Assembly (NCBI GenBank): GCA_951406725.2
Contig: OX597838.1
Span: 20,274,001 to 20,338,000 of the forward strand
Length of the DNA: 64,000 nucleotides
Direction: 5' to 3'
Origin: Octopus vulgaris
Lineage: Eukaryota
Below are positions 4,365 to 60,984 of this stretch, one piece after another. Numbering within the stretch: the stretch's first letter is position 1; each line of letters starts with the position of its first letter. Position numbers and translations under genes: made by a program. Under the pieces are notes generated by a model, which worked only from the letters and a program-made list of their open reading frames with translations, ran no database searches and had not been told where the DNA came from.

Positions 4365-4424
<60 letters not shown>

Positions 4425-4431
<7 letters not shown>

Positions 4432-4630
4432 TAATCCAAACAAGAAAACAAAAAGACAACAACGCGAGGATGTGGAACAAATAAAGTATTATTGGGCGCT
4501 CAGGAAAAAAGGGAAGAAGGAGGGTATGACGTTTCGAGCGGAGCTCTTCGTCGAAAACATAGGAGAAAGAAAGATCCCGAGGTGGGAGGACAGAGGGAAA
4601 AAAATGCAAGTGGTCTTCACGAAGTCACAT
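4425..4630 (-). mobile_element. Probable Penelope-like terminal fragment with degenerate hammerhead motif
   Basis: Abuts (TA)n. Minus strand 4524-4558: GUUU-UCGACGA-A-GAGC-UCC-GCUC-GAAA-CG-UC-AUAC. A truncated relative lies at ~40660-40755. Confidence 0.6.
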
Positions 4631-4693
4631 ATATATATAAGAAATACTAAATTTCTAAATCTCTCGTTGAGACATGTACGGTGGTGGGGCGAT

Positions 4694-5033
4694 AGAATGG
4701 TTGTATACTGTCAATCTAACATGAACGTGACAGTAGGGGGGTACACCACCGCTGTATAGCCCTAGGAAGCATCGACGCCTCCTGATGGCTTTGACACATT
4801 TTCCCCTGTGTACATTTACGAAGCCGAAGAAGGACAATGATCCTGAAACACGTGTCCCTAGATGCAGCTCCGGCGGCCGGGGATGTTTGTCTCCCCTTCG
4901 TAAATGTATATAAGGACACAGGGAAAAATGTGTCAAAGCCATCAGGAGGCGTCAATGCTTCCTAGGGCTATACAGCGGTGGTGTACCCCCCTACTGTCAC
5001 GTTTGTGTTAGATTGACAGTATACAACCATTCT
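4694..5033. repeat. Fold-back element with ~130-bp inverted arms and a hammerhead-like motif in the loop
   Basis: Arm 4694-4823 is the near-perfect reverse complement of 4896-5033. Loop on + strand: CCGAAGA-AGGA-CAAUGA-UCCU-GAAA-CACGUG-UC (4824-4856). Confidence 0.85.
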
Positions 5034-5055
5034 CTCTCTCTCTCTCTCTCTCCCC

Positions 5056-5113
<58 letters not shown>

Positions 5114-5336
5114 GTGAAGGCACATTCTGACTGTCATTGCCTGCTATTCATTGTTGGTCAGTGACTTGGCATTTGGTTGTAATTCACATAACTTCTCTTC
5201 TTTCACTGAGGGGTGCGTGGATTCCTTTGGTATTGTATATTGTACAAGCGAGTCAGGAATTAATGTCTTCAAAGAGAAACTATATACATACACATATATG
5301 CATACATATATGCAGACATATGTATGTATGCGTATG

Positions 5337-5685: not shown

Positions 5686-7326
5686 TATATATATAGTTCC
5701 CAACCACATGATTCCGGGTTCATTCCCAATGTGTGGCACCAAGGTCATATGTCTTCTTCTATAGCCTCGGGATGAGCAAAGCCTAATGAGTGGATTTAAT
5801 AAACGGAAACTGAAAGAAGCCCATCATATATGTGTGTGTTTGTCCCACACCACCACTTGGCAACCGGTGTTGGTGTGTTTACGTCCCTGCAACATAGCGG
5901 TTTGGCAACAGACCCCGATAGAATAAGTACCAGATTTAAAATGTGTACTACTGGAATTGATTCATTGAACTAAAAATTCTTCAAGTCGATGCCCCAGCAT
6001 GGCCACAGTCTGATGACTGAAACAAGTAAAAGATAAAAAAAAACAGACGCAGACATGCACACGCACACACACATACGTATATATATCGAGAAAGCGAGAG
6101 AGAGAGAGAGAGAGAGAGAATGTGTGCATGCGCGCGCATGTGTAAGGAGGCATGTGTATGAAAAGTACACATTACTGGTGCAATGTCTTGAGATGATGTT
6201 GCCTGAGTAATACACGGTTGGAATGGCGCCAGAAAGTTGCACGTTAGAGTAGAAATAACTGTTTATTGTCACAGCAGAAGGTACACAAACGTACGCCAGC
6301 AGTGGGTTACACAGGCAGACTACGGTGGATACACACGTGTTTGTGTCGTCTGCCAATCAAATTGCTTGCATCTTTGTTGTTGAATCCGTCCCGTGGTACC
6401 ATGACCGTGTTCAGTGCATAGTACTAAGGTATGTGATGAACAACATATGTCTTGGTGGTGGTGGTGGTGGTGTGTGTGGTTTGAATGGTGGTGGTGTTAC
6501 CCCTTGTTTGTATGTAAGTGTGTGATGGTGGTGGCGAATGAATGCTGGAAAGTGTATCATGCCGATGGTGGTAGTAATGATGCTGATGGTGGTTGAGGTG
6601 ATCGTGATGGCGATAGTAAAGATGGTGACGGTGGTAGACGTGACGTAGGGTCTCATCTTTGTTTTTCATTCTTTTAGGATCGTCAAATTAATACCAATCG
6701 AGAGCGGTGAATTAGTGGAATTGCTGCAATGTCAGTATTTGTTCCGGTTTATTGCTTTCTAAGTTCAAAAACCCACCTTGGTGGTACCGGTGTTGCTGAT
6801 GATAGCTGGGGAGTAGTACTAATGGAGGGGGTGCGTGGCTTAGTGGTTAGGGTGTACAGCTCCCGATCGTAAGGTTGTGAGTTCGATTCCCGGTGACGCT
6901 TTGTGTCCTTGAGCAAGACGCTTCATTTTCACGTTGTTCCAGCCTACTCATCTGGCAAAAATGAGTTGTACCTGTATTTCAAAGGGCCAGCTTTCTCACA
7001 TTCTGTGTCATGCTGAATCTCCCTGAGAACTACATTAAGGGTACATGGGATCTTTGTGGTTATCGTAACTGTCTACAATTTTGTTCCAATTGTTTTCAAA
7101 TTTGATATATGGATTAAGTTTTGTATACTAATTATGAACATGAAATTAATTTTCCCTATAAATTCAAAATTAAAAAGTTATTAGCCATTAAAATTTGAAA
7201 AAATTGGGTTATTTTAGCCAATCAAAGCGAGAACTTCACCGTAAAGTTCTGCTAGCATATTAAGCAAAGAAGCACCACGTGTTCCATAACTGATTGCGAA
7301 GAACTCTGCTTCCATAGCAACCAAAG

Positions 7327-7653
7327 ATGCTGCGTATGCGCACAAGGAGTGTAAACAAGGTCTGCATTCGACACTCAGTTCTTCCAGGAACCACTATCTT
7401 CAGTGACCTGTGGCGAGCTTATAATCATATCCCAGAAATCGTGGGTTATGATTTCAAACATAAAACTGGGAACCATAGTATTGAATTTATAAACTCAAAA
7501 GATGGGACTCACACTCAACAAATTGAAAGTACCTGGGCATCTTTAAAGCGTGGAAGCAAACGCCGGTGTGGAACATACCGTTCCGTGGTTGACTCTTATC
7601 TTTGTGAATTTACGTGCAGAAGGAGATATGAGAAAGATAATTTATTTTACTAA
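7327..7653 (+). pseudogene. C-terminal fragment of a Merlin/ISXO2-type DDE transposase
   Basis: PGTTIFSDLWRAY...HKTGNHS.EF...GTHTQQIESTW..LK...SYLCEF..RR matches IS1595-family motifs (SDxWxAY, VNHS, HTQxIESxW). The N-terminal part with the first catalytic Asp is absent. Confidence 0.9.
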
Positions 7654-7739
7654 GTCCTAGTGTGTATTGTAAACTTTCGTTCTTGGAATTTTTAAAAACT
7701 AATAAATGTCTGTTCTAAGCAATGTTTTAACTGTCATTT

Positions 7740-9100
7740 CTAGCAACTCCTGTTGGTTTGTTCATAGTTTTTAAATATTTAATTTGCTCGCGAATGTTTT
7801 AATGCTTTTCATTGTTTTCACTGTTAACTTTGCTAGTATATATTTTAATGTTTTGACTGATATTTCTAGCAACTCCTGTTGGTTTGCTCGTAGCTTTTAA
7901 ATATTTAATTTGCTCGCGAATGTTTTAATGCTTTTCATTGTTTTCACTGTTAACTTTGCTAGTATATATTCTAATGTTTTGACTGATATTTCTAGCAACT
8001 CCTGTTGGTTTGCTCGTAGCTTTTAAATATTTAATTTGCTCGTGAATGTTTTAATGCTTTTCATTGTTTTCACTGTTAACTTTGCTAGTATATATTTTAA
8101 TGTTTTGACTGATATTTCTAGCAACTCCTGTTGGTTTGCTCGTAGCTTTTAAATATTTAATTTGCTCGTGAATGTTTTAATGCTTTTCATTGTTTTCACT
8201 GTTAACTTTGCTAGTATATATTCTAATGTTTTGACTGATATTTCTAGCAACTCCTGTTGGTTTGCTCGTAGCTTTTTGAATATCTAATTTGCTCGTGAAT
8301 GTTTTAATGCTTTTCATTGTTTTCACTGTTAACTTTGCTAGTATATATTTTAATGTTTTGACTGATATTTCTAGCAACTCCTGTTGGTTTGTTCATAGTT
8401 TTTAAATATTTAATTTGCTCGTGAATGTTTTAATGCTTTTCATTGTTTTCACTGTTAACTTTGCTAGTATATATTTTAATGTTTTGACTGATATTTCTAG
8501 CAACTCCTGTTGGTTTGCTCGTAGCTTTTAAATATTTAATTTGCTCGTGAATGTTTTAATGCTTTTCATTGTTTTCACTGTTAACTTTGCTAGTATATAT
8601 TTTAATGTTTTGACTGATATTTCTAGCAACTCCTGTTGGTTTGCTCGTAGCTTTTGAATATCTAATTTGCTCGTGAATGCTTTAATGCTTTTCATTGTTT
8701 TCACTGTTAACTTTGCTAGTATATATTTTAATGTTTTGACTGATATTTCTAGCAACTCCTGTTGGTTTGCTCGTAGCTTTTGAATATCTAATTTGCTCGT
8801 GAATGCTTTAATGCTTTTCATTGTTTTCACTGTTAACTTTGCTAGTATATATTTTAATGTTTTGACTGATATTTCTAGCAACTCCTGTTGGTTTGCTCGT
8901 AGCTTTTAAATATTTAATTTGCTCGTGAATGTTTTAATGCTTTTCATTGTTTTCACTGTTAACTTTGCTAGTATATATTTTAATGTTTTGACTGATATTT
9001 CTAGCAACTCCTGTTGGTTTGCTCGTAGCTTTTGAATATCTAATTTGCTCGCGAATCTTTTAATGTTTTTCACTGTTTACTGTAACTAGTTTAGTTTTGA
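7740..9100 (+). repeat. 126-bp tandem repeat array, ~10.5 units, inside the Merlin element
   Basis: Unit start ctagcaactcc at 7740, 7866, 7992, 8118, 8244, 8371, 8497, 8623, 8749, 8875, 9001. Confidence 0.95.
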
Positions 9101-10260
9101 CATGTCGGTGCTCCCTCCCCCCCAGCCCGCTTTCTAGCAACTGTGACAAATGATGGAAGATGCAGAGAACAGGCTGTTTCCTGACTGGCTGAACATTCTG
9201 AAAATTATCAAAATTTGAACGCCTGTAACATTTTCGCAAAATTTTTCTGGAATAAATGAATAACAAATTCCGGTTTCAGCGTAAAAAATTACATCCTACT
9301 TGATGCATAAACATGTTTTTTTAAACATTTCGACATGCAGTAATGATAACCACAAAGATCCGGTACGTGTGTCTGTGGAGTGCTGTTCCGTTGAAGAGAT
9401 CAACTGAAGCTCACGTCGTCGTAACTGACAGAGTGTCAGCTTTTAAGTTTCAAGTACCAATAGGTGCAAGTGTGGCTCAATGGGAAGAAGTTTACTTTCT
9501 AACCACATGGTTCCGGGTTCATTCCCACTGCGTGGCACATTGAGCAAGTGTCCTCTACAATAGCCTCGGACCAACCAAAGCCTTGTGAGTGGATTTGGTA
9601 GACGGAAACTGAAAGAAGCCCGTCGTATAGGCGCAGGCGTGACTCTGTGTTAAGAAGCTTATTTCGCAAACACATGGTTCCGGGTTCATTCCCACTGCGT
9701 GATACCTTGGACAAGTGTCTTCTATAGCTTCGGATTCACCAAAGCCTTGTGAGTGGATTCGGTACACGAAAACTGAAAGAAGCCCGTCGCATATTTATAC
9801 ACACACACATATATATTTCTTTACTACCCACAAGAGGCTAAACACAGAGGGGACAAACAAGGACAGACAAACGGATTACGTCGACCCCAGTGCGTAACTG
9901 GTACTTAATTTATCGACCCCGAAAGGATGAAAGGCAAAGTCGACCTCGGCGGAATTTGAACTCAGAACGTAACGGCAGACGAAATACAGCTACGCATTTC
10001 GCTCAGCGTGCTAACGTTTCTGCCAGCTCGCCGCCTTATATACACATATATATACACATACACACACACACATATATACACACACACACATATATATACA
10101 CACACAATATATATATAAATATATATGTATATATTTATGAGTGTGTGTCTTTGCTTCTGTGTCTGTTCCCCCACCATCGCTTCACAACTGATGCTGGTGT
10201 TTCCGCCCCCGAAACTTAACGGTTCAGCAAAACGAGGGGTCGGCGATATAAATTTACATA

Positions 10261-10492
10261 TACTGGGTTGGTGCATAATTATTGTGGCTTTTTATCAACA
10301 AATTTTATTCAACAAAAACAATAACAATATTTAACAAAAGCATCTTTAAATGACGGTCTGACCGTCTGCGAAGCAAATGGGAAGCAGTAATTGAAGTAGA
10401 TGGTGAATATGCTCCGGAATAATCATTTAAAGATGTTTTTGTTACATGTTGTTATTGTTTTTGTTGAATAAAATTTGTTTATTATGCACCAA
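10261..10492 (+). mobile_element. Mariner-derived MITE
   Basis: Inverted ends ttggtgcataat / attatgcaccaa and inner inverted arms; the centre encodes ...DRLRSKWEAVIEVDGEYAPE*, typical of a mariner transposase C-terminus. Confidence 0.75.
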
Positions 10493-12349: not shown

Positions 12350-12777
12350 TGTATGTATGTATGTATGTATGTATGTATGTATGTATGTATGTATAGATAC
12401 GTATATATGTATGTCTGGCAGAAATGTTAGCACACCGGGCGAAATGCTCAGCGGTATTTCGTCTGTCTTCATTTTGAGTTCAAATTCCTCCGAGGTCGAC
12501 TTTGCTTTTTATCCATTCAGGGTCAATAAATTAAATACCAGTTACGTACTGGCATCTATCTAAGCGACTGGCCCCATCTCCCCAAATTCCGGGCTTTGTA
12601 CCTGGAGCAGAAAAGATATATACGCATATGTATGTATGTATGTATATAAACGTAAAAGACTTGTTTTATTTCAATTCCTGAGCGCCATACTAATACAATT
12701 GTTTGTTTGTACTCCACCTGCCTTCGTCTTTTGTTTATTTTCGTAAAGCTTCCCTATATATATATATATATGTATAT

Positions 12778-13059
12778 AAACAATTGCAGCGTGTGGAAGG
12801 TGTTTGTAAGCCATTTAAGAAACACACAAAAGCCGTTCGATTCACTTCAACATTTAAGTTTAACTTGTCAAAATATTTTCGTCGCTTTAAGACCGCGACC
12901 TGTTCACTGACAAAAATCCGTGCTTGACAAATTAAACTTAAATGTTGAAGTGAATCGAACGGCTTTTGTGTGTTTCTTAAATGGCTTACAAACACCTTCC
13001 ACGCTGCAATTGTTTTCGTTTCAGCACACGATCTCAGATCAAATCACTTGCTATGCAAC

Positions 13060-13095
<36 letters not shown>

Positions 13096-13134
13096 GATCT
13101 CAGATCAAATCACTTGTTATGCAAGTACATCTCC

Positions 13135-13188
<54 letters not shown>

Positions 13189-13207
13189 AGATGTACTTGC
13201 ATAGCAA

Positions 13208-13256
<49 letters not shown>

Positions 13257-13310
13257 GGAGATGTACTTGCATAGCAAGTGATTTGATCTGAGATCGTGTG
13301 CTGAAACGAA

Positions 13311-13315
<5 letters not shown>
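12778..13315. repeat. Fold-back cluster (~94-bp inverted arms plus shorter direct and inverted segments) among (TA)n tracts, probably Penelope pLTR-derived
   Basis: 12778-12871 is inverted at 12924-13015; segment gatctcagatcaaatcacttg recurs directly (~13030, ~13097) and inverted (~13255-13315). Confidence 0.85.
12865..12913 (-). ncRNA. Minimal type I hammerhead-ribozyme-like motif with G3-C8 core
   Basis: UUGUCA-GUGAACA-G-GUCGC-GGUCUUAAA-GCGAC-GAAA-AUAU-UU-UGACAA: 6-bp stem I, 5-bp stem II, palindromic stem III (AAUAUU). Confidence 0.7.
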
Positions 13316-18150: not shown

Positions 18151-18379
18151 TACGACAGGCTTCTTTCAGTTTTCGTCTACCAAATCCACTCACAAGGCAT
18201 TGGTCGGCCCGGGGCTATAGCAGAAGACACTTGCCCAAGATCCCACACAGTGGGACTGAACCCGGAACCATGTGGTTGGTTAGCAAGCTACTTACCACAC
18301 AGCCATTCCTACGCTACACTATTTTATAAGAACACAACCTCTATGCGACCATTTGTCTTGCTAGATATAACAGTTAAAT

Positions 18380-19271
18380 GGATCTTTACCTTTTGACCGA
18401 CAGATTTTAAAAATAAATTTTTGTAACTAAACACTTTCAAACTTCGGACACTGGTAGAATGTGTCATATAAAACATGTTTTTCTCTTAGCATTTTTGAGA
18501 AAAACTTATAAATAGGAAGTTATTTCACGTTAAAGTTGTATTTCGGTAATTTCAACCAATCAATGACGTACATTCAGCTGAATAAAATTACTGCTGTTGT
18601 TTGTCAACAACAACTATCAGCGGTGTATTTTTCATTCGTCACTCTTATTTATGACATCGTTCGTGCGTTTGTACTGGTTTTAAGGTTATAGGGTTAGGGT
18701 TTTGGGGTTAGGGTAGTCATAAATAACAGTGACAAACGAAATATACACCGCCGGAAGTTCTTGTTGACAAACAACAGCAGTAATTTTATTCAGCTGAATA
18801 CACGTCATTGATTAGTTGAAATTACTGAAATACGAGAACTTTAACGTGAAATAACATCGTAAATATAAGCTTTTCTCAAAAATGCTAAGAGTAAAAGATG
18901 TTCTATATGACACATTCTACCAGTGTTCGAAGTTTGAAACTGTTTAGTTACAAAAAAAGTACCAGTTATGCACTGGGATCGATGCAATCGACTTAATCCC
19001 TTTGCTTGTCCCCGTATTTGTCCCCGATAGTTGTTGTTGACAAACAATGGCAGTAATTTTATTCAGCTGAATACACGTCATTGATTGGTTGAAATTACCG
19101 AAATATGACAACTTTAACGTGAAATAACTTCGTAAATATAAGTTTTTCTCAAAAACGTTAAGAGTAAAAGATGCTTTTTTATATGACACATTCTACCAGT
19201 GTCCGAAGTTTGAAAGTGTTTAGTTACAAAAAATTATTTTAAAAAATCTGTCGGTCAAAAGGTAAAGATCC
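18380..19271. mobile_element. Long-TIR fold-back MITE with GGATCTTT termini and TTAGGG-like core (composite copy)
   Basis: Ends GGATCTTTACCTTTTGACCGACAGA / TCTGTCGGTCAAAAGGTAAAGATCC; ~270-bp inverted arms; second right arm at ~18717-18955; partial copies at ~20355-20774 and 43896-44145. Confidence 0.85.
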
Positions 19272-20940
19272 CAAATTTATGATGTTTTTGCATGTCAAGT
19301 AGAAAATGGTAGCCCTTCTTGAAGATTCTAGCTGCTAGAATATTTTGGGGCCAATTTGTCATCATCGTCTATTTGTCTTGGTAGCTCCGGCTACACTCGC
19401 AGCCGATCTGCTTAAAGAGTACACCGCTACTCTCCTGCAGGCGCTGCTGGTCAACAGAAAAACTAATTTATATATAGCTGTTTTCTTTAGAGACAAAAGC
19501 ACCGAAAAATGAAATTGTTAATGATATCCTGTTCTGAGATGCAAGTGATCACTACTTGCTGACGTCATCTATAATTGAGCGAATCCTGTTTGTGTTCTTT
19601 GGTTATTTTTGCATTCGGTTACTATGATCCGGATTTTATTTTTAAGCAGTGGTTTGAAACCAAATATTCCTGCTACAAACCGAACATTTAAAAGAAATTT
19701 TGTAATGTTGCTATTTATTTTATTTTATTTATTTATTTTGCAGCCGACATTCTTATATGTCAGCCCTTAACTTATTTGAGAAAATCAGTGCCTGTCAGAA
19801 GTTTTAATCGATAGCATCGTAAAATAATTACACATTTAACTTGCAGTATTTCATCACATATAAGTCGGCGAGCTGGCAGAAACGTTAGCACACCGGGCGA
19901 AATGCTTAGCGGTACTTTGTATTTTGTTCTGAGTTCAAATTCCGCCGAGGTCGACTACGCCATTCGTCCCTTCGGGCTCGATAAATTAAGAACCAGTTGC
20001 ATACTGGAATCGATCTAATCGACTGGTCCTCTCCCCCAAAATTTCGAGCTTTGTGCCTAGAGTGGAAAAGAATATTTTTTTGTATTTAAGACTTTCAAGC
20101 GTGTTCTTGAATTCGTCGACTAAATCATTTCACTGGTGACCACTCCAAAACAAGAATGTCTTGCAAGTTAACTGAAACTTTCTTTTTAGCTGGTGAAGGA
20201 GCTCAATCGCGAGTTGTAATTGTTAGTGACACCCCTTCCCCTGCAAAATAAAAGGGGACTTACTTTCAAGAAATTGAGGAATAATATCTATTTCTTTATT
20301 GCCCACAGGGGACTAAACATAGAGGGGACAAACAAGGACAAAGGAATTAAGTCGATTCAGCTGAATAAAATTACTTCTGTTGTTTGTCAAGAATTTCCGG
20401 CGGTGTATATTTCGTTTGTCACTGTTATTTATGACAACCCTAACCCTAAAACCCTAACGCTAACCCTGAAACCAGTACGAACGCACGAACGATGTCATAA
20501 ATAACAGTGACAAACGAAATATACACCGCCGATAGTTGTTGTTGACAAACAACGGCAGTAATTTTATTCAGCTGAAAACATGTCATTGATTGGTTGAAAT
20601 CACCGAAATACGAGAACTTTAACGTGAAATAACTTCCTAAATATAAGCTTTTCTTAAAAAACGCTATGAGGAAAAGATGCTTTATACGACACATTCTACC
20701 AGTGTCCGAAGTTTGAAAGTGTTTAGTTATAAAAAATAATTTTTTAAAATCTGTCGGTCAAAAGGTAAAGATCCGCTAGTTGGTATAGGACGTGTTCAAT
20801 ACGTGTATCGTACGTACCATCCAATATCGCTGGCTTGTCGCCTCTAATGCTAATCAGTAGTATGTTTTATACACAAGTGGCAAGAGCTTCCTTACTACCT
20901 CGTTAAACTTTTCCAATTACGAGTGATTTATAATCTTCAT

Positions 20941-22821
20941 GATGAGCAAGAATACGAAAGATAAAAGCACTGATAAAATTGACTTAGGTTTAACTTCGAC
21001 AAAGAAATGAATTAAATAGTATAATCGTATATTATCGAACAAACTTTTATTGGATTTTCGATTTTCATCATGGTTAGAACCAAGTAAAACAAATATCGAA
21101 AGAACATACAGTAAATTTTGTTGTGAAATTCAAGACAGTGTAACTCATCTGGAGAAACACGGGACACGGAAAAACAATGTTAATTCAGAAAGTAAAAGTG
21201 GAAAACTGACCGACTTTTTGCAGCCTACAACTTCTGTTCATATTACAAACGCAGCAGTTGCGGAGCTTAAGCTTTGTTCCTTCATTACAGAACATAACTT
21301 ACCAGTGAGACCTGGACTAATTCAGAATGTATGTCCTGATTCCAAAATAGCTACAGGCATTAAATGTACAGTAACCAAACCTACACAAATATATAAAAAA
21401 TGTTTTAGGCCCTTATTACTCTGACAACCTCATTAAACAGTTAAAAGTGTGCAAGTTTTCATTAATTGTTGTTGAAACTACTGATGTAAGTACAAAATAA
21501 AAACTTGTTCTGTTAGCTAGATTTTATGATTGTAGCACTCAGAAAATTATTGATAGTTATTTAATTCTTTTAGAAGCCAAGGATTGCTCTGCTAATGGAA
21601 TTTTTCCCTCTATTGAAAGATTCTTCACCTTACGTGATATTCCTTTTGAAAATTGGATAGGATTTGCTAGTGACAATGCTAGTGTAATGATGGGACAGAA
21701 GGGAGGTGTGCAGATATTACTGAAGAACAAAGTTCCCTCTCTTTTTATTCAGGGTTTTGTCTGTCACTCTATGCATATCCGTGCATCAAAGCCAAGTTCA
21801 GAATTACCTTCATATTTAGAAGAACACGCTAGAAGCATATATTCATTCCTCTCAAATAGCCCAAAGAGACTGCAAGAATATGAAGAATTTCAGGCATTTA
21901 CTCAAACAAATCTTCATAAATTATTACATGTAAGTTGTACAAGGTGGCTATCTTTAGAACAAGTTGTCAAAAGAATAGTAGAACAGTGACCTGCGCTAGT
22001 GTTATTCTTTACTACTGCTGCTATTGAAGATAACAGTGCAGCTTCAAATGTGCTCAACTCATTAACAAATCCACTCACAGAGATGTATTATGCATTTTTA
22101 GTATATATTTTGCCAGATGTTACTAAGTTGAACTTAGATTTCCAATCAGAAAGCTCTAGAATGCACAAATCTATTACATATGCTGTTATGGGAATATTTG
22201 GCAATTTTGTTTAAAAGATATTGTGAAAAATAAAGAGCTATATGAAATTAACAATAATGATCCATCAGTGTATCTTCCCATAACTGGAATTTAGAGGAGC
22301 AAAAGTTGAAAGCATCTACATAAAGAAAGCTTCATCTATTAGTTCAACTGGATTGAAAACAAAAATGGGACAAGAACGCAAAATATTCAGACAGTTAGGT
22401 GATACAAAAAAAGGGACAACAAAACATCCAGACAGACGATACAAAGGAAACAAGGACGGGTCATTCGGAGTTTTCTATCCTCAGTCGAATTCCAGCCGAA
22501 ATTGCAAAGATAACCTGGAGCTCCGAATGACCCGTCCTTGTTTCCTTTGTATCGTCTGTCTGGGTGTTTTGTTGTCCCTTTTTTGTATCACCTAACTGTC
22601 TGGATGTTTTGCGTTCTTGTCCCAATTTTGAAATTTTTATATATAAAATATAGCGGCATACGTATAGTTTGGTCTCTCATTATAAATAATATATATTATG
22701 CATTTCAGTTGATTTACAGGCGAAATATTACAAATTTAAATTCTGGTACTTTTTGAGCAAAATTTGGTACATTTATTTTGCTAAATCTGGTACTTTCATC
22801 AAAAGACGTTTGGCAAGCCTG
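20941..22821 (+). pseudogene. hAT-superfamily transposase pseudogene (ZNF862/ZBED-like) with right TIR
   Basis: Motifs FSSWL (degenerate Zn finger), AELKLCSFITEHNLP, FSLIVVETTDVST (normally FSLIVDE), GFASDNASVMMG, VCHSMH, TRWLS; stops and frameshifts; right end TTGGCAAGCCTG (22810-22821) preceded by sub-terminal tggtac repeats. Left TIR not found. Confidence 0.9.
22362..22629. repeat. Fold-back element (~109-bp inverted arms) interrupting the hAT element
   Basis: 22362-22470 is inverted at 22521-22629; single-arm relatives at ~26860-27020, ~4305-4367 and ~825-855, each next to (TA)n. Confidence 0.85.
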
Positions 22822-26789: not shown

Positions 26790-26860
<71 letters not shown>

Positions 26861-27062
26861 AAATGAGAGAAGAACGCAAAACATCCGGACAGCTAGGTGA
26901 TACAAAAAGGGACAACAAAACATCCAAATAGACGATACAAAGAAAACAAGGACGGGTCATTCGGAGTTTCCTTTCCTCCGTCAAGCACCAGATTATCCTC
27001 GCAATTTCTGCTGATTCATACATACATATATGTACATAGATGAGCATATATACACACATACA

Positions 27063-38961: not shown

Positions 38962-40203
38962 CTAGCAAATGCACCCGTCCTTTGGACGGTTTAAGTTGCT
39001 TTCGTGGTATTTTTTTCACCAAATAATTGAACTACCGAGAAGGTTTATGTGTAGCATGGTAATCTGTTTCCGATTAACCTAGGAACGGAAAATCAAATTG
39101 AAGGCTTGTTATTGTGGAGGTCGTTGCACTTTGATTATCATAGAATATATAAGTTTGCAAGCGATGTAAAGTAGAGCTACTGAAGTGTTTTGGGAGTAGA
39201 TTACGGATAATGACTACAAAATATAGTTGTTTACATGAAAGCGAAATTTCTTGTCAGAAACAGCCACATAAATGGTGTAAGGAAATTGAAGGAAGATGTT
39301 GAAACTTCCCCTCTGCGAGTTTATTTTTTTCAACAGCAAAGAGAGCTATTTTTTTGTTGTTGTTTGAGAGAGAAAAGCTAACAAAAGCCCCTTTATTTTA
39401 TCTTCCTACATAGCGTGCACATAAACTAACAGCGAATGCTGCATAAAGTTAAATTGGTATGTAGCTTCCTGAAAGATACGTATAGCTTTCGCTAGTGGAA
39501 GCAAAACTTTTATTTAAAGGTTGATTCTATGGGATGAATCATATGTGAGTGCTTAAAAAAGGCTAGAATGACAATGCTAAAACCTATTTGAAACAACGGA
39601 CAGCAGCCGAAATATCATAATGGCTGGGTAAAGAAGCATCCTTAAAGTAAAACAACGGTATCAAAGGTAAAAAAGAAGGTATCAACAATCAGAAGAGAGA
39701 GAAGGAAACATCACCTTTCAAGTAACTCAGAATAGGTAAAGGTAAGCTTGCCAGAGTTTAATGCAGTTTCAATATGCAGATTAAGATAGTTTGGTATTGG
39801 ATATTCCTCACGTATATTTTTCCTAGTCAACTGAATGACCGTCGTAAGTGGACAGCAGAAATAAATAGACGAAATCCTTTCACTTTTATGAAAAGATTAA
39901 AAAGAAAATGAGGGCAAAAAGCACACGTTTTTTCACAATGTTATCACCCTCTTGTACTGTCTCATATCCCTCCCCACCACTACACACTCAATAACACTAT
40001 AAAAATGGTCAAATTTTTCCACAAGAACTTAGTTCAATTTGAAAACTCCACTAGAATGGACGAAAGCGCTATTATATGACATATGATATATGATGTATAA
40101 AAACATGTAATATACAAATAAATATCTATAAATATAAAACCATCCGAATTTCTGAGTACCTCATTTCTTCTAATATAAAATACCTGTACATCATCTCCAA
40201 ACC

Positions 40204-40594: not shown

Positions 40595-40749
40595 GAGAGG
40601 GATATATTGATAGATAGATAGGTAGATTCACACACAGATACACGTGTATATGTGTATATAGCGTCAATAATACTTTAATTGTTCCACGTCCTGCGTTGCT
40701 GTGTTTTTTTCTCTTTTTTTCTCTTTTTTTCTGTTTTCTTGTTGGATTA

Positions 40750-40784
<35 letters not shown>

Positions 40785-43195: not shown

Positions 43196-44153
43196 TGTGT
43201 TTGTGTGAAAAACTTTAGCTGTCAATGTCCCCCCAACATCGCTTGACAACCGATGCTGGTGTATTTACGTCCCCGTAAATTAGCGGTTCGGCAAAAGAGA
43301 CCGATAGAATAAGTACTAGGCCTACAAAGAACAAGTCCTGAGGTCGATTTAGTCGACTTAAGGCGGTGCTCCAACATGGCCAAAGTCCAATGACTGAAAC
43401 AAGTAAGAAACTACTTCAGAACACAAACAAGTTATACACAACTTCCTTAATCGACAGCTTGAATAGTATGATATTGTATTGCTCTTAAATGGGCGGAGTA
43501 GTTAGGTAACAGCAACAATAATATTGCCAAGCTAAGTCTATTACCTATAGTAACTGTTACAATTTCATTTGTAGCTCTATAATGCATTATCGTAATACAT
43601 TGACAGCTGAAGTTTTGCACAGGTTGACCTAAATGACAAGAAAAGCACAGCCTTTCAATCGTTGATCAAAATCTTTTGTAACGTTCTCAGAAATGACACA
43701 GCACAAAAAAAAAAAAAAAAAGAAAAGAAAAAGGAAGAAACATGAAATAATATACCAACGGCAACTAAGAAGATATCATAATATTACGTATATTCCCACA
43801 GGCTTATTGAATAGAAAAATGATTTGAGTACTTAAGCATGGTCGTATGAATAAGAAGTTCGCTTCGCAACTGCGTTTTTTTTTAAAAAAGACTCGGGATC
43901 TTTACTTTTTGACCGACATATTTAAAAAATAATTTTTTGTTTCTAAACACTTTCAAACTTCGGACACTGGTAGAATGTGTCATATAAAACATCTTTTACT
44001 CTTAGCAGTTTTTGAGAAAAACTTATAAATAGGAAGTTATTTCACCTTTAAGTTCTCGTATTTCGGTAATTTCAACCAACCAATAACGTGTATTCAGCTG
44101 AATAAAATTACTGTCATTGTTTGTCAACAACAATTATCGGGGACACACACTCG

Positions 44154-48816: not shown

Positions 48817-50967
48817 TCTGCTAGTGTTGTGTTTGCCGCCCACCACCAACACCGCTTGACAACCGGTGTTGGTTTGTTTACATTCGGAAAAAAAGAAATC
48901 GATTGAATAAAAAATTGGGGGCGATTTGTTCGACTGAATCCATCACAGCGGTGTCCCAGCACCAATGACGAAAGCAAGTAACAAAAAAATAGTAAATATT
49001 TTATTCACTGGAGTCGATTGTAATATGCATGTGTACATTTACATATAACGTTTAACAGTTAGAAGTCTTCTATTATTCAACATAGGCGTGGGAGTGGCTG
49101 TGTGGTAAGTAGCTTGCTTACCAACCACATGGTTTCGGGTTCAGTCCCACTGCGTGACACCTTGGGCAAGCGTCTTCTACTATAGCCTCGGGCCGATTAA
49201 AGCCTTGTGAGTGGATTTGGTAGACGGAAACTGAAAGAAGCCCGTCGTATATATGTATATATATATATATATGTATGTGTGTATATGTTTGTGTGTCTGT
49301 GTTTGTCCACCACCACTCCGACAACATCGCTTGACAACCGATGCTGGTGTGTTTACGTTCCTGTAACTTAGCGGTTCGGCAAAAAAGACCGATAGGCTTA
49401 CAAAGAATAAGTCCTGAGGTCGATTTGCTCGACTAAAGGCGGTGCTCCAGCATGGCCGCAGTCAAATGACTGAAACAAGTAAAGAGAGTAATTTGAACTC
49501 AGGTCGTAAAGACGAACGAAATGCCGCTAAGCATTTTACCCCGCGTGCTAACGACTCTGCCAGCACGCCGCCTTTTTCACCATAATATATTAAGGTGAAT
49601 AAGGCGGCCAGCTGGCAGACACGTTAGCACGCTGGGCGAAATGCTTAGCCGTACTTCGTCTGCCGTTACGTTGTGAGTTCAAATTCCGCCGAGGTCGACT
49701 TTGCCTTTCATCCTTTCGGAGTCGATAAATTAAGTACCAGTTACGCACTGGGATCGATGTAATCGACTTAATACCTATGTCTGTCCTTGTTTGTCCCCTC
49801 TGTGTTTAGCCCCTTGTGGGTAATAAAGAAATAGGTATTTCGTCTGCCGTTACGTTGTGAGTTCAAATTCCGCCGAAGTCGACTTTGCCTTTCATCCTTT
49901 CGGGGTCGATAAATTAAGTACCAGTTACGCACTGGGGTCGATGTAATCGACTTAATACCTATGTCTGTCCTTGTTTGTCCCCTCTGTGTTTAGCCCCTTG
50001 TGGGTAGTAAAGAAATAGGTATTTCGTTCTGAGTTCAAATTCCGCCGAGGTCGACTTTGCCTTTCATCCTTTCGGGGTCGATAAATTAAGTACCAGTTAC
50101 GCACTGGGGTCGATGTAATCGACTTAATACCTATGTCTGTCCTTGTTTGTCCCCTCTGTGTTTAGCCCCTTGTGGGTAGTAAAGAAATAGGTATTTCGTT
50201 CTGAGTTCAAATTTCACCGAGGTTGACTTTGCCTTTCATCCTTTCGGGGTCGATTAAATAAGTGGACTGGAGTAACTTGAAAATAAAAAAAATCTTGCTC
50301 AGGGACAAAATGCGCCACCGAGAATTGAACAAACGACCTTGCCGATACCTTGACCACTAAGCCACTCGTCTTCACTTAATAAATAATTGCCATATTTAAT
50401 GTTGTTATCAATTTCGGATCACATTACGATGCCTTGGTTCTCTAATTATGAAAACCAATGCCCTCAACACGTCATATAACGTGTCGTCTTCTCGGCTTTC
50501 TTCTTTGTTTTTTCTTAGGCGTTATGATGTAAAGTTAAATATGATTTGGTTGCTATTTCTAGCTGGCTGAGAGACCAGGTAAAGGTTTTGTTTTCTTTGT
50601 CTTTGCTGATTTCCATGACAACTGTTTCGACCTACGACATGTTGGTAATGGATATCTGTGATTGGCTAAAATTTCATAACCTCAAATCCTTATAACTTTA
50701 TTATCAATTTCTAGGAAAATGAATAAATAAATAAATAAATGCAGGTTTTGTCATTAGCATGCAAGACTAGATAAGAACTACATTAAAAAAAAAAAAAACT
50801 GATCTCGTGAAAATTAAAAAAGCTTCGAGTGGCTGGAAAAAATTAAACAAGATTCAGAATGAGACCCGTTAATTTGATAACAATAACCGGCTTATAACGC
50901 TGTGCTTTCAGTAAATTACTTCAAAGATTTTAAAATAATAAATGAAATACATACATACATACTTACA

Positions 50968-51167: not shown

Positions 51168-51530
51168 AGTTAGTTAGTTAGTTAATTTGGTTCAAAAGCA
51201 AATAGCAAGGCCATGTAGGGGGACATGGAGTTAAGTACAGGGTGGTGTTCATGTAAAGAGTTCAGGCCACTTGAGGTCCAGGGAGGCTTTGAACAAAGCG
51301 GTCGTCGGCATCTTCACCATCTCGTCTGGCAGCTTGTTCCACGGATCCGCAACCCGGACGGAGAAAGCTCCTCTCCTTCGATTGAGATGAAATCGTCGCA
51401 GGTAGAGCTTTTCGGAATGACCCCGCAGCCGACGCTCTGGAGCAGGAGTGAAGAACAGCTCTTTCGAGAAGTTACACTTTCCGCTTATGATGTTGTGGGC
51501 GAGAATGAGATCACCACGGCGGCGGCGTTT
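51165..51530 (-). pseudogene. CR1-clade LINE 3' end with (TAAC)n tail
   Basis: Uninterrupted frame KRRRRGDLILAHNIISG...RLRGHSEKL...FSVRVADPWNKLPDEMV...FKASLD...*, then a short 3'UTR and (TAAC)n; 5'-truncated, lying between (TA)n tracts. Confidence 0.92.
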
Positions 51531-51573
51531 ATATATATATATATATATGTATATGTATATGTATATGTATATA

Positions 51574-51609
<36 letters not shown>

Positions 51610-52339
51610 TGTATGTATGTATTTATGTTCTGAGTTCAAATTCCGCCGAGGTCAACTTTGCCTTTCATCCTTTCGGGGTTGATAAATTAAGTACCAGTTG
51701 CGTACTGCGTCGACCTTATCGACTGGCCCCCTTCCCCAAAATTTCGGCCCTTGTGCCTAAAGTAGAAAAGATGCACACACACACAGATATAAGTACTAAA
51801 TCACATTAAAATACAAATCCCAAACCGAGCAAAATAAAAACACGAGCAAAGAAAGAGGGGCAAAAAGAAGAAAAATAGGAAGAAAAAATTTTCAATTCAA
51901 CACTATGTGCTTCATTTTGACGCAGGAGTGGCTGTGTGGTAAGTAGCTTGCAAACCAACCACATGGTTCCGGGTTCAGTCCCACTGCATGGCACCTTGGG
52001 CAAGTGTCTTCTACTATAGCCTCGGGCCGACCAAAGCCTTGTGAGTGGATTTGGTAGACGGAAACTGAAAAGAAGCCCGTCGTATATATGTATGTATATG
52101 TGTGTGTGTGTTTGTGTGTCTGTGTTTGTCCCCCAACATCGCTTGACAACCGATGCTGGTGTGTTTACGTCCCCATAACTTAGCGGTTCGGTAAAAAAGA
52201 AACCGATTGAATAAGTAGTAGGCTTACAAAGAATAAGTCCTGGGGTAGATTTGCTCGACTAAAGGTGGTGCTCCAGTATGGCCGCAGTCAAATGACTGAA
52301 ACAAGTAAAAGAGTAAAAAAGAGAGTACACTGCGAAGTT

Positions 52340-59488: not shown

Positions 59489-60984
59489 CACACACACACA
59501 CACATACATACACAACACACATACATAAATACGACAGGGTTCTTTCAGTTTCCGTCAACCAAATCCACTGACAAGGCTTTGGTCGGGCCGAGGCTATAGT
59601 AGAAGACACTTGCCCAAGGTGCCACGCAGTGAGACTGAACTCGGAACCAAGTAGTTCATAAACAAGCTACTTACCACACAGCCTAGCGGATTATATCATA
59701 TCATTTCATGAACGATCATCATCATCTTGGCGAGAAAAGACAATGTAAAATCTTCGTGCTTAGCAAGAAGTGATCATTTTTAACACGTCTACCAAATCCA
59801 CTCATAAGGCTTTGGTTGACCCGAGGCTATAGTAGAAGACACTTGCCCAAGGTGCCACGCAGTGGGACTGAACTCGGAACCATGTGGCCGGGAAGCAGGC
59901 TTCTTACCACACTACTTAGAATCAACAGACTAATTTGACACAGATTAACGGGAGAGGATTAACGGAGTTTAACGAGAGGATATTAAGAGAGGCTAACAAG
60001 ATTAACGAGCAAAATATTTGTAATTTCGGAGTTTTAGCTCGTAAATTACATGATAGGAAAACGTTTTACATAAATCTTCAGAAACTCGTGTGTTATTCCG
60101 ACATAGCTCTAGTTTATGACACTAAGACAAATCCTTCGGGATTTTAATTTAAAAGTTGTATGTTGTATAGCGAGAATAAAATCCTTAGATAATGTTTTAA
60201 TTAAATCATCATTCTGAACTACACAGGCGTAGGAGTGACTGTGTGGTAAGTAGCTTGCTTACCAACCACATGGTTCCGGGTTCAGTCCCACTGCGTGGCA
60301 CTTTTTGGCAAGTGTCTTCTACTATAACCTCGGGCCGACCAAAGCCTTGTGAGTGGATTTGGTAGACGGAAACTGAAAGAAGCCCGTCGTATATATGTAT
60401 GTATATATGTGTGTTTGTGTGTCTGTGTTTGTCTCCACCCCCAACCAATGCTGGTGTGTTTACGTCCCCGTAACTTAGCGGTTCGGCTAAAAGAGAACCG
60501 ATAGAATAAGTACTGGGCTTACAAAGAATAAGTCCTGGGGGTCGATTTGCTCGACTAAAGGCGGTGCTCCAGCATGGCCACAGTGAAATGACTGAAACAA
60601 GTAAAGGAGTAAGATAGAGAGTGCGTTAATATTTTGTTTTGAACAATAAAACATCGCATTCGCTTAATTTGTGAGTTGAAAATAAATAAATAAATAAATA
60701 AATAACAAATAGAGATAACGAGAGGGGGAGAGAGGGAGAGAAAGAGAGAGATAACGAAAGAGAAAGAGAGAGAAAAAAAAAGCAGGATAGCAACAGTTAA
60801 AATGTATAAGTTACATTTGTGTTGAAATTTCTTAGTGCATGCACACGACCCATATGTTTGTTTAGCGCATGCGCAAATACTAATACCACTCGAACCAACA
60901 AGTACTTGTTTTGAATGTTTTCTGTTTCAGACCATAACGTTCGACTTATCCGGTTTTGGGAGAGATGACCTTCAACCTCTCATG

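Follow-up and report, generated by a model that had tools for sequence, protein, structure and literature searches.

EN+ Penelope-like elements (PLEs) are described as leaving insertions in which a 5'-truncated copy carries an inverted, likewise 5'-truncated copy at its 5' end, with a tail on one end of the insertion and (TA)n as target (PMC8557442, PMC3846280); the tail usually measures 30-40 bp (PMC8557442, PMC11167929). The typical PLE hammerhead has a short palindromic stem III and needs to dimerise (PMC4209133). Its function in EN+ PLEs is called still unclear in PMC8557442, where the origin of tandem and inverted PLE structures is called unexplained. For an anole PLE protein, PMC11167929 reports that both target strands are nicked and extended in vitro, that synthesis starts at two internal sites bracketing the tail and that mainly uncleaved RNA is used as substrate; the same source reports no anole RNA-seq reads ending at the cleavage site and normal insertion of ribozyme mutants in vitro. 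Inverted PLE ends with hammerheads have thus already been described, and the palindrome analysed here is best read as another such case. The interval 4641-5033 is probably a dead PLE end that was inserted into a TA/CT microsatellite as a head-to-head pair of cDNAs, both of them 5'-truncated.

The palindrome lies in a 64-kb stretch of Octopus vulgaris DNA, referred to below as the window, with a GC content of 34-46% in 2-kb bins, 146 rows of tandem repeats, 10% microsatellite and a CpG o/e of 0.93. It consists of a left arm of 130 nt (4694-4823), a single-copy loop of 72 nt (4824-4895) and a right arm of 138 nt (4896-5033). The arms differ by four substitutions (4722, 4723, 4773 and 4803 in left-arm coordinates) and by an 8-nt indel, whose letters (4909-4916) are exclusive to the right arm. 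Independent substitutions on both sides make it improbable that the palindrome arose as an artefact of copying. Folding of the corresponding RNA (4690-5040) gave -262.7 kcal/mol (z -31.6), a value reached by none of 100 shuffled sequences. Palindromes are common locally, with eight short-loop fold-backs in the window, this one among them. A TATA-like 8-mer (4907-4914) occurs in the right arm only, its counterpart in the left arm being removed by the indel; judged from its letters, it might have a promoter role.

Orientation was taken from the hammerhead strand. The direct copy measures 210 nt (4824-5033, + strand), the right arm being its 3' part. The inverted copy, which adjoins the 5' end of the direct copy, measures 183 nt with its extension (4823-4641, - strand), and the left arm represents a 5'-truncated copy of the element end, whose 5' end corresponds to position 4896. 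Past the left arm, the inverted copy runs on for about 53 nt (4693-4641) into a short (TA)n tract (4628-4640), an extension revealed by the arm comparison and confined to this copy, whereas the right arm enters a (CT)n(TA)n microsatellite (5034-5110, with repeats at 5031-5073 and 5073-5110). The extension is named the tail by its likeness to the 30-40-bp tail of PLEs (PMC8557442, PMC11167929). No target-site duplication was discernible at the arm ends, where the flanks differ and one arm runs on.

The loop opens with a type I hammerhead-like core (4824-4856, + strand), identified with a motif descriptor and by co-folding. From 4824 on it reads C3 C4 G5 A6 A7 G8 A9, i.e. U4C, followed by a stem II of 4 bp (4831-4834/4841-4844), GAA (4845-4847), a stem III formed by the 8-nt palindrome ACACGTGT (4848-4855) and C17 (4856). 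The type I conserved set (C3 U4 G5 A6 N7 G8 A9, G12 A13 A14, A15.1-U16.1 and H17) is present throughout, except for the change of U4 to C. Stem II is closed by an A-U pair, or else an additional U precedes GAAA, and the consensus G10.1-C11.1 is not matched; its pair probability was 0.8-0.9 for the core alone and about 0.5 inside the full hairpin. Co-folding of two copies yielded stem II together with an intermolecular stem III of 8 bp (-17.9 kcal/mol). Stem I is reduced to 1 bp, and its orphaned 3' strand, contained in the rest of the loop (4857-4895, + strand), has no partner of at least 6 nt within 4601-5120. The long arm was considered as a surrogate for stem I and ruled out, given the 39 nt between C17 and the arm. 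The first-pass annotation, which had described near-perfect long inverted arms, a U4C core with palindromic stem III and GUC at the start of the loop, an inversion junction immediately 5' of the core and a poorly paired stem I, was confirmed on all of these points; the 8-nt indel had escaped it. An ATG in hammerhead loop II opens a 42-codon frame (4837-4965, + strand), for which a homologue search found none.

With no more than one core mismatch allowed and a stem II of at least 4 bp required, motifs arose at a rate of 0.73 per 64-kb Markov-3 random window (both strands), and at 0.025 (5 of 200 random windows) once an 8-nt palindromic stem III was added, figures that overstate the significance because the descriptors were set after the motif was known. 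Rfam gave no hit at the gathering score in the whole window, and a search of 4400-5100 with Rfam returned one unrelated match (E 0.47) and no hammerhead. In the modelled fold of the whole hairpin, the probability of an open core was about 1.5e-3 without stem I and about 3e-8 with the 1-bp stem I. As the 5' strand of stem I has been replaced by the arm, having been removed by the presumed join, this ribozyme copy is probably inactive and unable to cut here. The U4C change itself is described as considerably lowering hammerhead activity in vitro in PMC3088659; in the viroid variant of that source infectivity was kept and the rest of the ribozyme is intact, whereas here stem I is lost. U4 is found in all 44 rows compared from the alignment in PMC4209133 and in all 34 rows of table S2 in PMC8557442. 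A T-to-C change after insertion seems an improbable source of C4, since it would have had to strike one given site and just one of the four arm substitutions lies outside CpG in this single copy. A motif on the - strand at 4554-4528 was considered as further support for U4C and was rejected, because its core is mismatched at two positions, its stem I is 1 bp long and U4 may have been deleted.

The locus shares several features with the inverted pLTRs of EN+ PLEs (Penelope/Poseidon, Neptune, Hydra and Naiad), as described in PMC8557442 and PMC3846280: head-to-head copies, a tail-like extension on one end, a microsatellite target without clear target-site duplication and a hammerhead in the terminal repeat. 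It differs from them in lacking an ORF, in comprising only about 210 + 183 nt, in the length of the extension (53 nt instead of 30-40) and in being assignable to no clade. With the minimal type I hammerheads of PLEs, which act in dimeric form (PMC4209133, PMC8557442), the motif shares a CNGANGA-type core, a short stem II, GAAA, a palindromic stem III and GUC, the ACAC/GTGT halves of stem III being those of Hydra-1_cRog and Penelope-17_HM (PMC8557442, table S2); it departs from them in C at position 4, the missing stem I and the absence of an Rfam hit, and its core differs from the Hydra-1_oBim hammerhead in the same table. Non-LTR retrozymes (bioRxiv 10.64898/2026.07.22.740005) are likewise described as non-coding, related to pLTRs and equipped with a type I hammerhead. 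They form head-to-tail tandems with at least two complete hammerheads, in contrast to the head-to-head pair with one incomplete core seen here, and neither a tandem array nor a second core was found at 4694-5033.

The designation of the palindrome as an inverted pLTR, proposed in the first-pass annotation, is therefore upheld as far as its anatomy goes (two copies in head-to-head arrangement, a tail on one side, flanking microsatellites and a hammerhead set back about 210 nt from the 3' end), while membership of the PLEs is unproven, because the window holds neither an RT or GIY-YIG ORF nor a second copy of the family. Among 291 frames compared with Pfam (one added to 290 of the 319 that qualified), none matched an RT or a GIY-YIG domain, and an ORF is not expected in a 5'-truncated end. 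As the family is represented by a single copy in the 64 kb, neither its native stem I nor its state at position 4 is recoverable from the window. The PLE reading is favoured by the dimer co-fold, which reproduces the palindromic form of stem III. The insertion between (TA)n (4628-4640) and (CT)n(TA)n (from 5034) is modest evidence, given the share of microsatellites in the window. Counted in favour were also the PLE families targeting (TA)n that are listed for Octopus, and a repeat-derived frame (60212-60625, - strand) that matches an Octopus vulgaris predicted protein with 52% identity (E 5.9e-26; one named match of two). The tail of 53 nt and the core-to-end distance of 210 nt, compared with about 100-190 nt in table S2 of PMC8557442, are both longer than published and were counted against it, as were the missing Rfam hit and the non-consensus closure of stem II. 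A 12-nt motif from the loop was absent from the supplement of PMC8557442, in whose text line wrapping could hide matches. Protein searches with two translated repeat frames returned no candidates, and the two matches of a third frame, a 1756-aa moth hypothetical protein (11 stretches, 35% identity) and an unnamed protein, were judged spurious.

A second palindrome (12778-13060) has arms of 94 and 92 nt, a loop of 52 nt, a tail of 45 nt and (TA)n flanks. Judged by its sequence, it belongs to an unrelated family with the same architecture. Its hammerhead (12907-12871, - strand) is complete and has a G3-C8 swap, stems I and II of 7 and 5 bp and a palindrome of 6 nt, which makes it a better ribozyme candidate than 4824-4856; motifs as complete were found in 3 of 150 random windows. 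G3 occurs in none of the 44 rows compared from the PMC4209133 alignment and none of the 34 rows of table S2 in PMC8557442, and among the full-text literature matches listed none combined 'Penelope' with 'G3-C8', a comparison outside which the PLE hammerhead variants of Lunse et al. lie. The direct copy of this palindrome starts 16 nt upstream of the core and the inverted copy at position 17, no more than 1 nt away from the scissile bond. Hammerheads were thus found in two of the eight palindromes, the loops of the other six giving no descriptor match. Three motifs in the window combine a stem II of at least 4 bp with a stem III of at least 6 nt, and two of them sit in palindrome loops (0.27 expected per random window). 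Further fragments of the tail of this second family, in both orientations and with (TA)n between them, were seen at 13095-13315, where the tail is extended by about 12 nt.

In the palindrome at 4694-5033, C3 is the first nucleotide of the direct copy and lies 33 nt ahead of the scissile bond; the inverted copy begins 39 nt beyond that bond. The first-pass annotation had placed the breakpoint at the ribozyme, which holds for the 5' edge of the core only. Since neither breakpoint coincides with the scissile bond, self-cleavage did not make the junction, and the direct copy came from uncleaved RNA, because cleaved RNA would have lost the core; this agrees with the substrate preference of the anole protein in vitro (PMC11167929). 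On the PLE reading, the two copies were truncated at different points, 72 nt apart, which accounts for the loop. In each of the two palindromes of the window that bear a hammerhead, the tail belongs to the copy that reaches less far in the 5' direction, which favours a join of two cDNAs. By this route, considered the most likely, a PLE protein would nick both target strands, and two cDNAs would be primed on element RNA that had not been cleaved, starting at the two internal sites by which the tail is defined. Each cDNA would stop in the structured hammerhead region, and the two would then be joined head to head, perhaps with the help of the 5-nt complementarity of CGAAG and CTTCG at the junction, on both sides of which CGAAG is present. 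The join would remove the 5' strand of stem I and leave the ribozyme copy inactive. This scheme is an extrapolation from the in vitro reactions described in PMC11167929. The tail of the right copy could have been lost later to the (CT)n tract, a point counted against the two-cDNA join.

A PLE end might also have been inverted by self-priming or fold-back of one strand, either the cDNA or, as Arkhipova proposed, an antisense template, at an imperfect inverted repeat, with later trimming of the tail of the right copy; self-priming is proposed in PMC3846280, and we regard this course of events as possible, if rather doubtful. The sequences 4825-4844 and 4881-4900 are complementary in 14 of 20 aligned columns, and this pairing ends at the breakpoint (shuffle p about 0.02); an equally good partner exists elsewhere, however, in windows ending at 4966-4967. 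The occurrence of CGAAG on both sides of the junction and a further palindrome (22360-22630) that turns at a short CCAG/CTGG repeat are likewise consistent with fold-back, but an exact event would not duplicate the 5-mer, and the location of the tail on the inverted copy in two of two cases is difficult to reconcile with it, as fold-back of a single cDNA cannot template a tail absent from its own start unless trimming followed. It is unlikely that the hammerhead itself set the junction, with template RNAs paired via the palindromic stem III, one of them self-cleaved, or both, and reverse transcriptases converging and stopping at the ribozyme. Such a process would account for the position of both breakpoints within about 50 nt of the centre of stem III in two of two cases, for the start of the inverted copy of 12778-13060 next to the scissile bond, for the favourable dimer co-fold and for the location of two of the three best-formed motifs in palindrome loops. 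Yet these are two loci with one exact coincidence, neither end lies at the scissile bond in 4694-5033, and short truncated copies end near a hammerhead in any case, hammerheads being located 127-210 nt from the 3' end. In addition, a solo copy (4428-4627) runs 73 nt past its core, and the anole data of PMC11167929, with neither RNA-seq reads ending at the cleavage site nor an insertion defect of ribozyme mutants in vitro, point away from it.

Other short-loop palindromes of the window look like DNA elements, e.g. the TA-bounded one at 10260-10490, whose ends we take to be mariner-like. The palindrome at 4694-5033 might by the same token be no PLE but a DNA element, either a MITE or a fold-back element, that has long inverted ends and carries a hammerhead-like motif by chance, in line with the missing Rfam hit and with the 0.7 relaxed cores that arise per random window. 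We consider this quite improbable: no target-site duplication was found to bound the terminal inverted repeats, one arm continues for 53 nt to (TA)n, a motif with an 8-nt palindrome was met in no more than 5 of 200 random windows yet falls inside a 72-nt loop, and an unrelated palindrome repeats the whole architecture. Read-through of the locus would give a hairpin of about 130 bp that would be edited non-specifically by ADAR. The earlier suggestion that long dsRNA from the arms is a potential ADAR or Dicer substrate stands in so far as it is true of any transcribed hairpin, ADAR being generic; its Dicer part is weakened by the reported absence of the endo-siRNA pathway in molluscs (PMC12479628), and Dicer-made siRNAs are unlikely if that survey holds. 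That the hairpin is a selected regulatory dsRNA is highly improbable, in spite of its stability of -262.7 kcal/mol and of the report that A-to-I editing in metazoans mainly targets young repeats that have an inverted copy close by (PMC9989829). Three of the four arm substitutions lie at CpG (p 0.003). As octopus methylation is reported for gene bodies but not for transposons (PMC9476566), this is a weak hint that the locus is intronic, offset by the CpG o/e of the window. No host exon was found by Pfam in the 291 frames, which short exons would escape, and the arms show an 8-nt indel and no compensatory changes.

As inverted PLE ends with hammerheads are known and the core has no stem I, the single locus matters little; its value is as a pointer to a testable pattern that it has in common with 12778-13060. 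Extrapolation from two unrelated families in one 64-kb window suggests that the octopus genome should hold many such junctions. Cores with U4C or G3-C8, if they prove to be features of families, would add to the natural hammerhead variants of the alignments compared. It may be speculated, at long odds, that both cores (G3-C8 in 12907-12871) are indeed family features of octopus PLEs and that the ribozyme organises integration, with an RNA dimer formed through stem III, two cDNAs converging on the dimer, one template of which is sometimes self-cleaved, and a head-to-head join. If so, the short palindromes of the genome would record, as fossils do, the dimerisation and cleavage of hammerheads in vivo and would bear on the open question of the role of PLE hammerheads.

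The solo PLE-like end mentioned above (4428-4627, - strand) is adjacent to the palindrome, lies between (TA)n tracts and carries a decayed minimal hammerhead (4554-4528). Related 3' ends were seen at 40661-40756 and, more weakly, at 12671-12760. Comparison of the four PLE-like ends gave similarity at shuffle level for five of six pairs and about 1.8 SD above it for one. A U3-A8-type hammerhead-like motif without stem I (40039-40071, + strand) lies outside the palindromes and is probably due to chance. A half core (CTGAGGA) in the palindrome at 22360-22630 has been lost from one arm by deletion, and related copies of this palindrome lie at 26860-26982 and 817-846.

Three of the 291 frames were assigned a family by Pfam, namely an IS1595-type transposase and two marginal DUFs. 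The former is an IS1595/Merlin-type fragment (7318-7650, + strand; PF12762, E 2.3e-08), followed by a 126-bp tandem array (7721-9078). Two frames that, by eye, presumably represent a broken hAT-type transposase (21020-22211, + strand) and a LINE C-terminus (51252-51635, - strand) gave no convincing Pfam match. A sigma-70 promoter scan stayed at chance level, its model being bacterial and irrelevant to a eukaryote. The short element at 10260-10490 has TA-bounded inverted ends and inner inverted repeats of about 60 bp around a 22-codon frame, which we assume to resemble the C-terminus of a mariner transposase. One repeat family with inverted arms around a telomere-like loop of TTAGGG units (18375-19279, 20356-20774 and 43895-44145) accounts for two of the eight short-loop palindromes, its copy at 18375-19279 carrying an extra inverted duplication. 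An older palindrome (189-447), with a 66-nt loop containing an inner hairpin, lies between (TG)n and (TACA)n. At 49490-49685, two diverged 5' parts of a dispersed repeat, which we take to be a SINE, stand back to back with no spacer and are identical at 79 of 98 positions.
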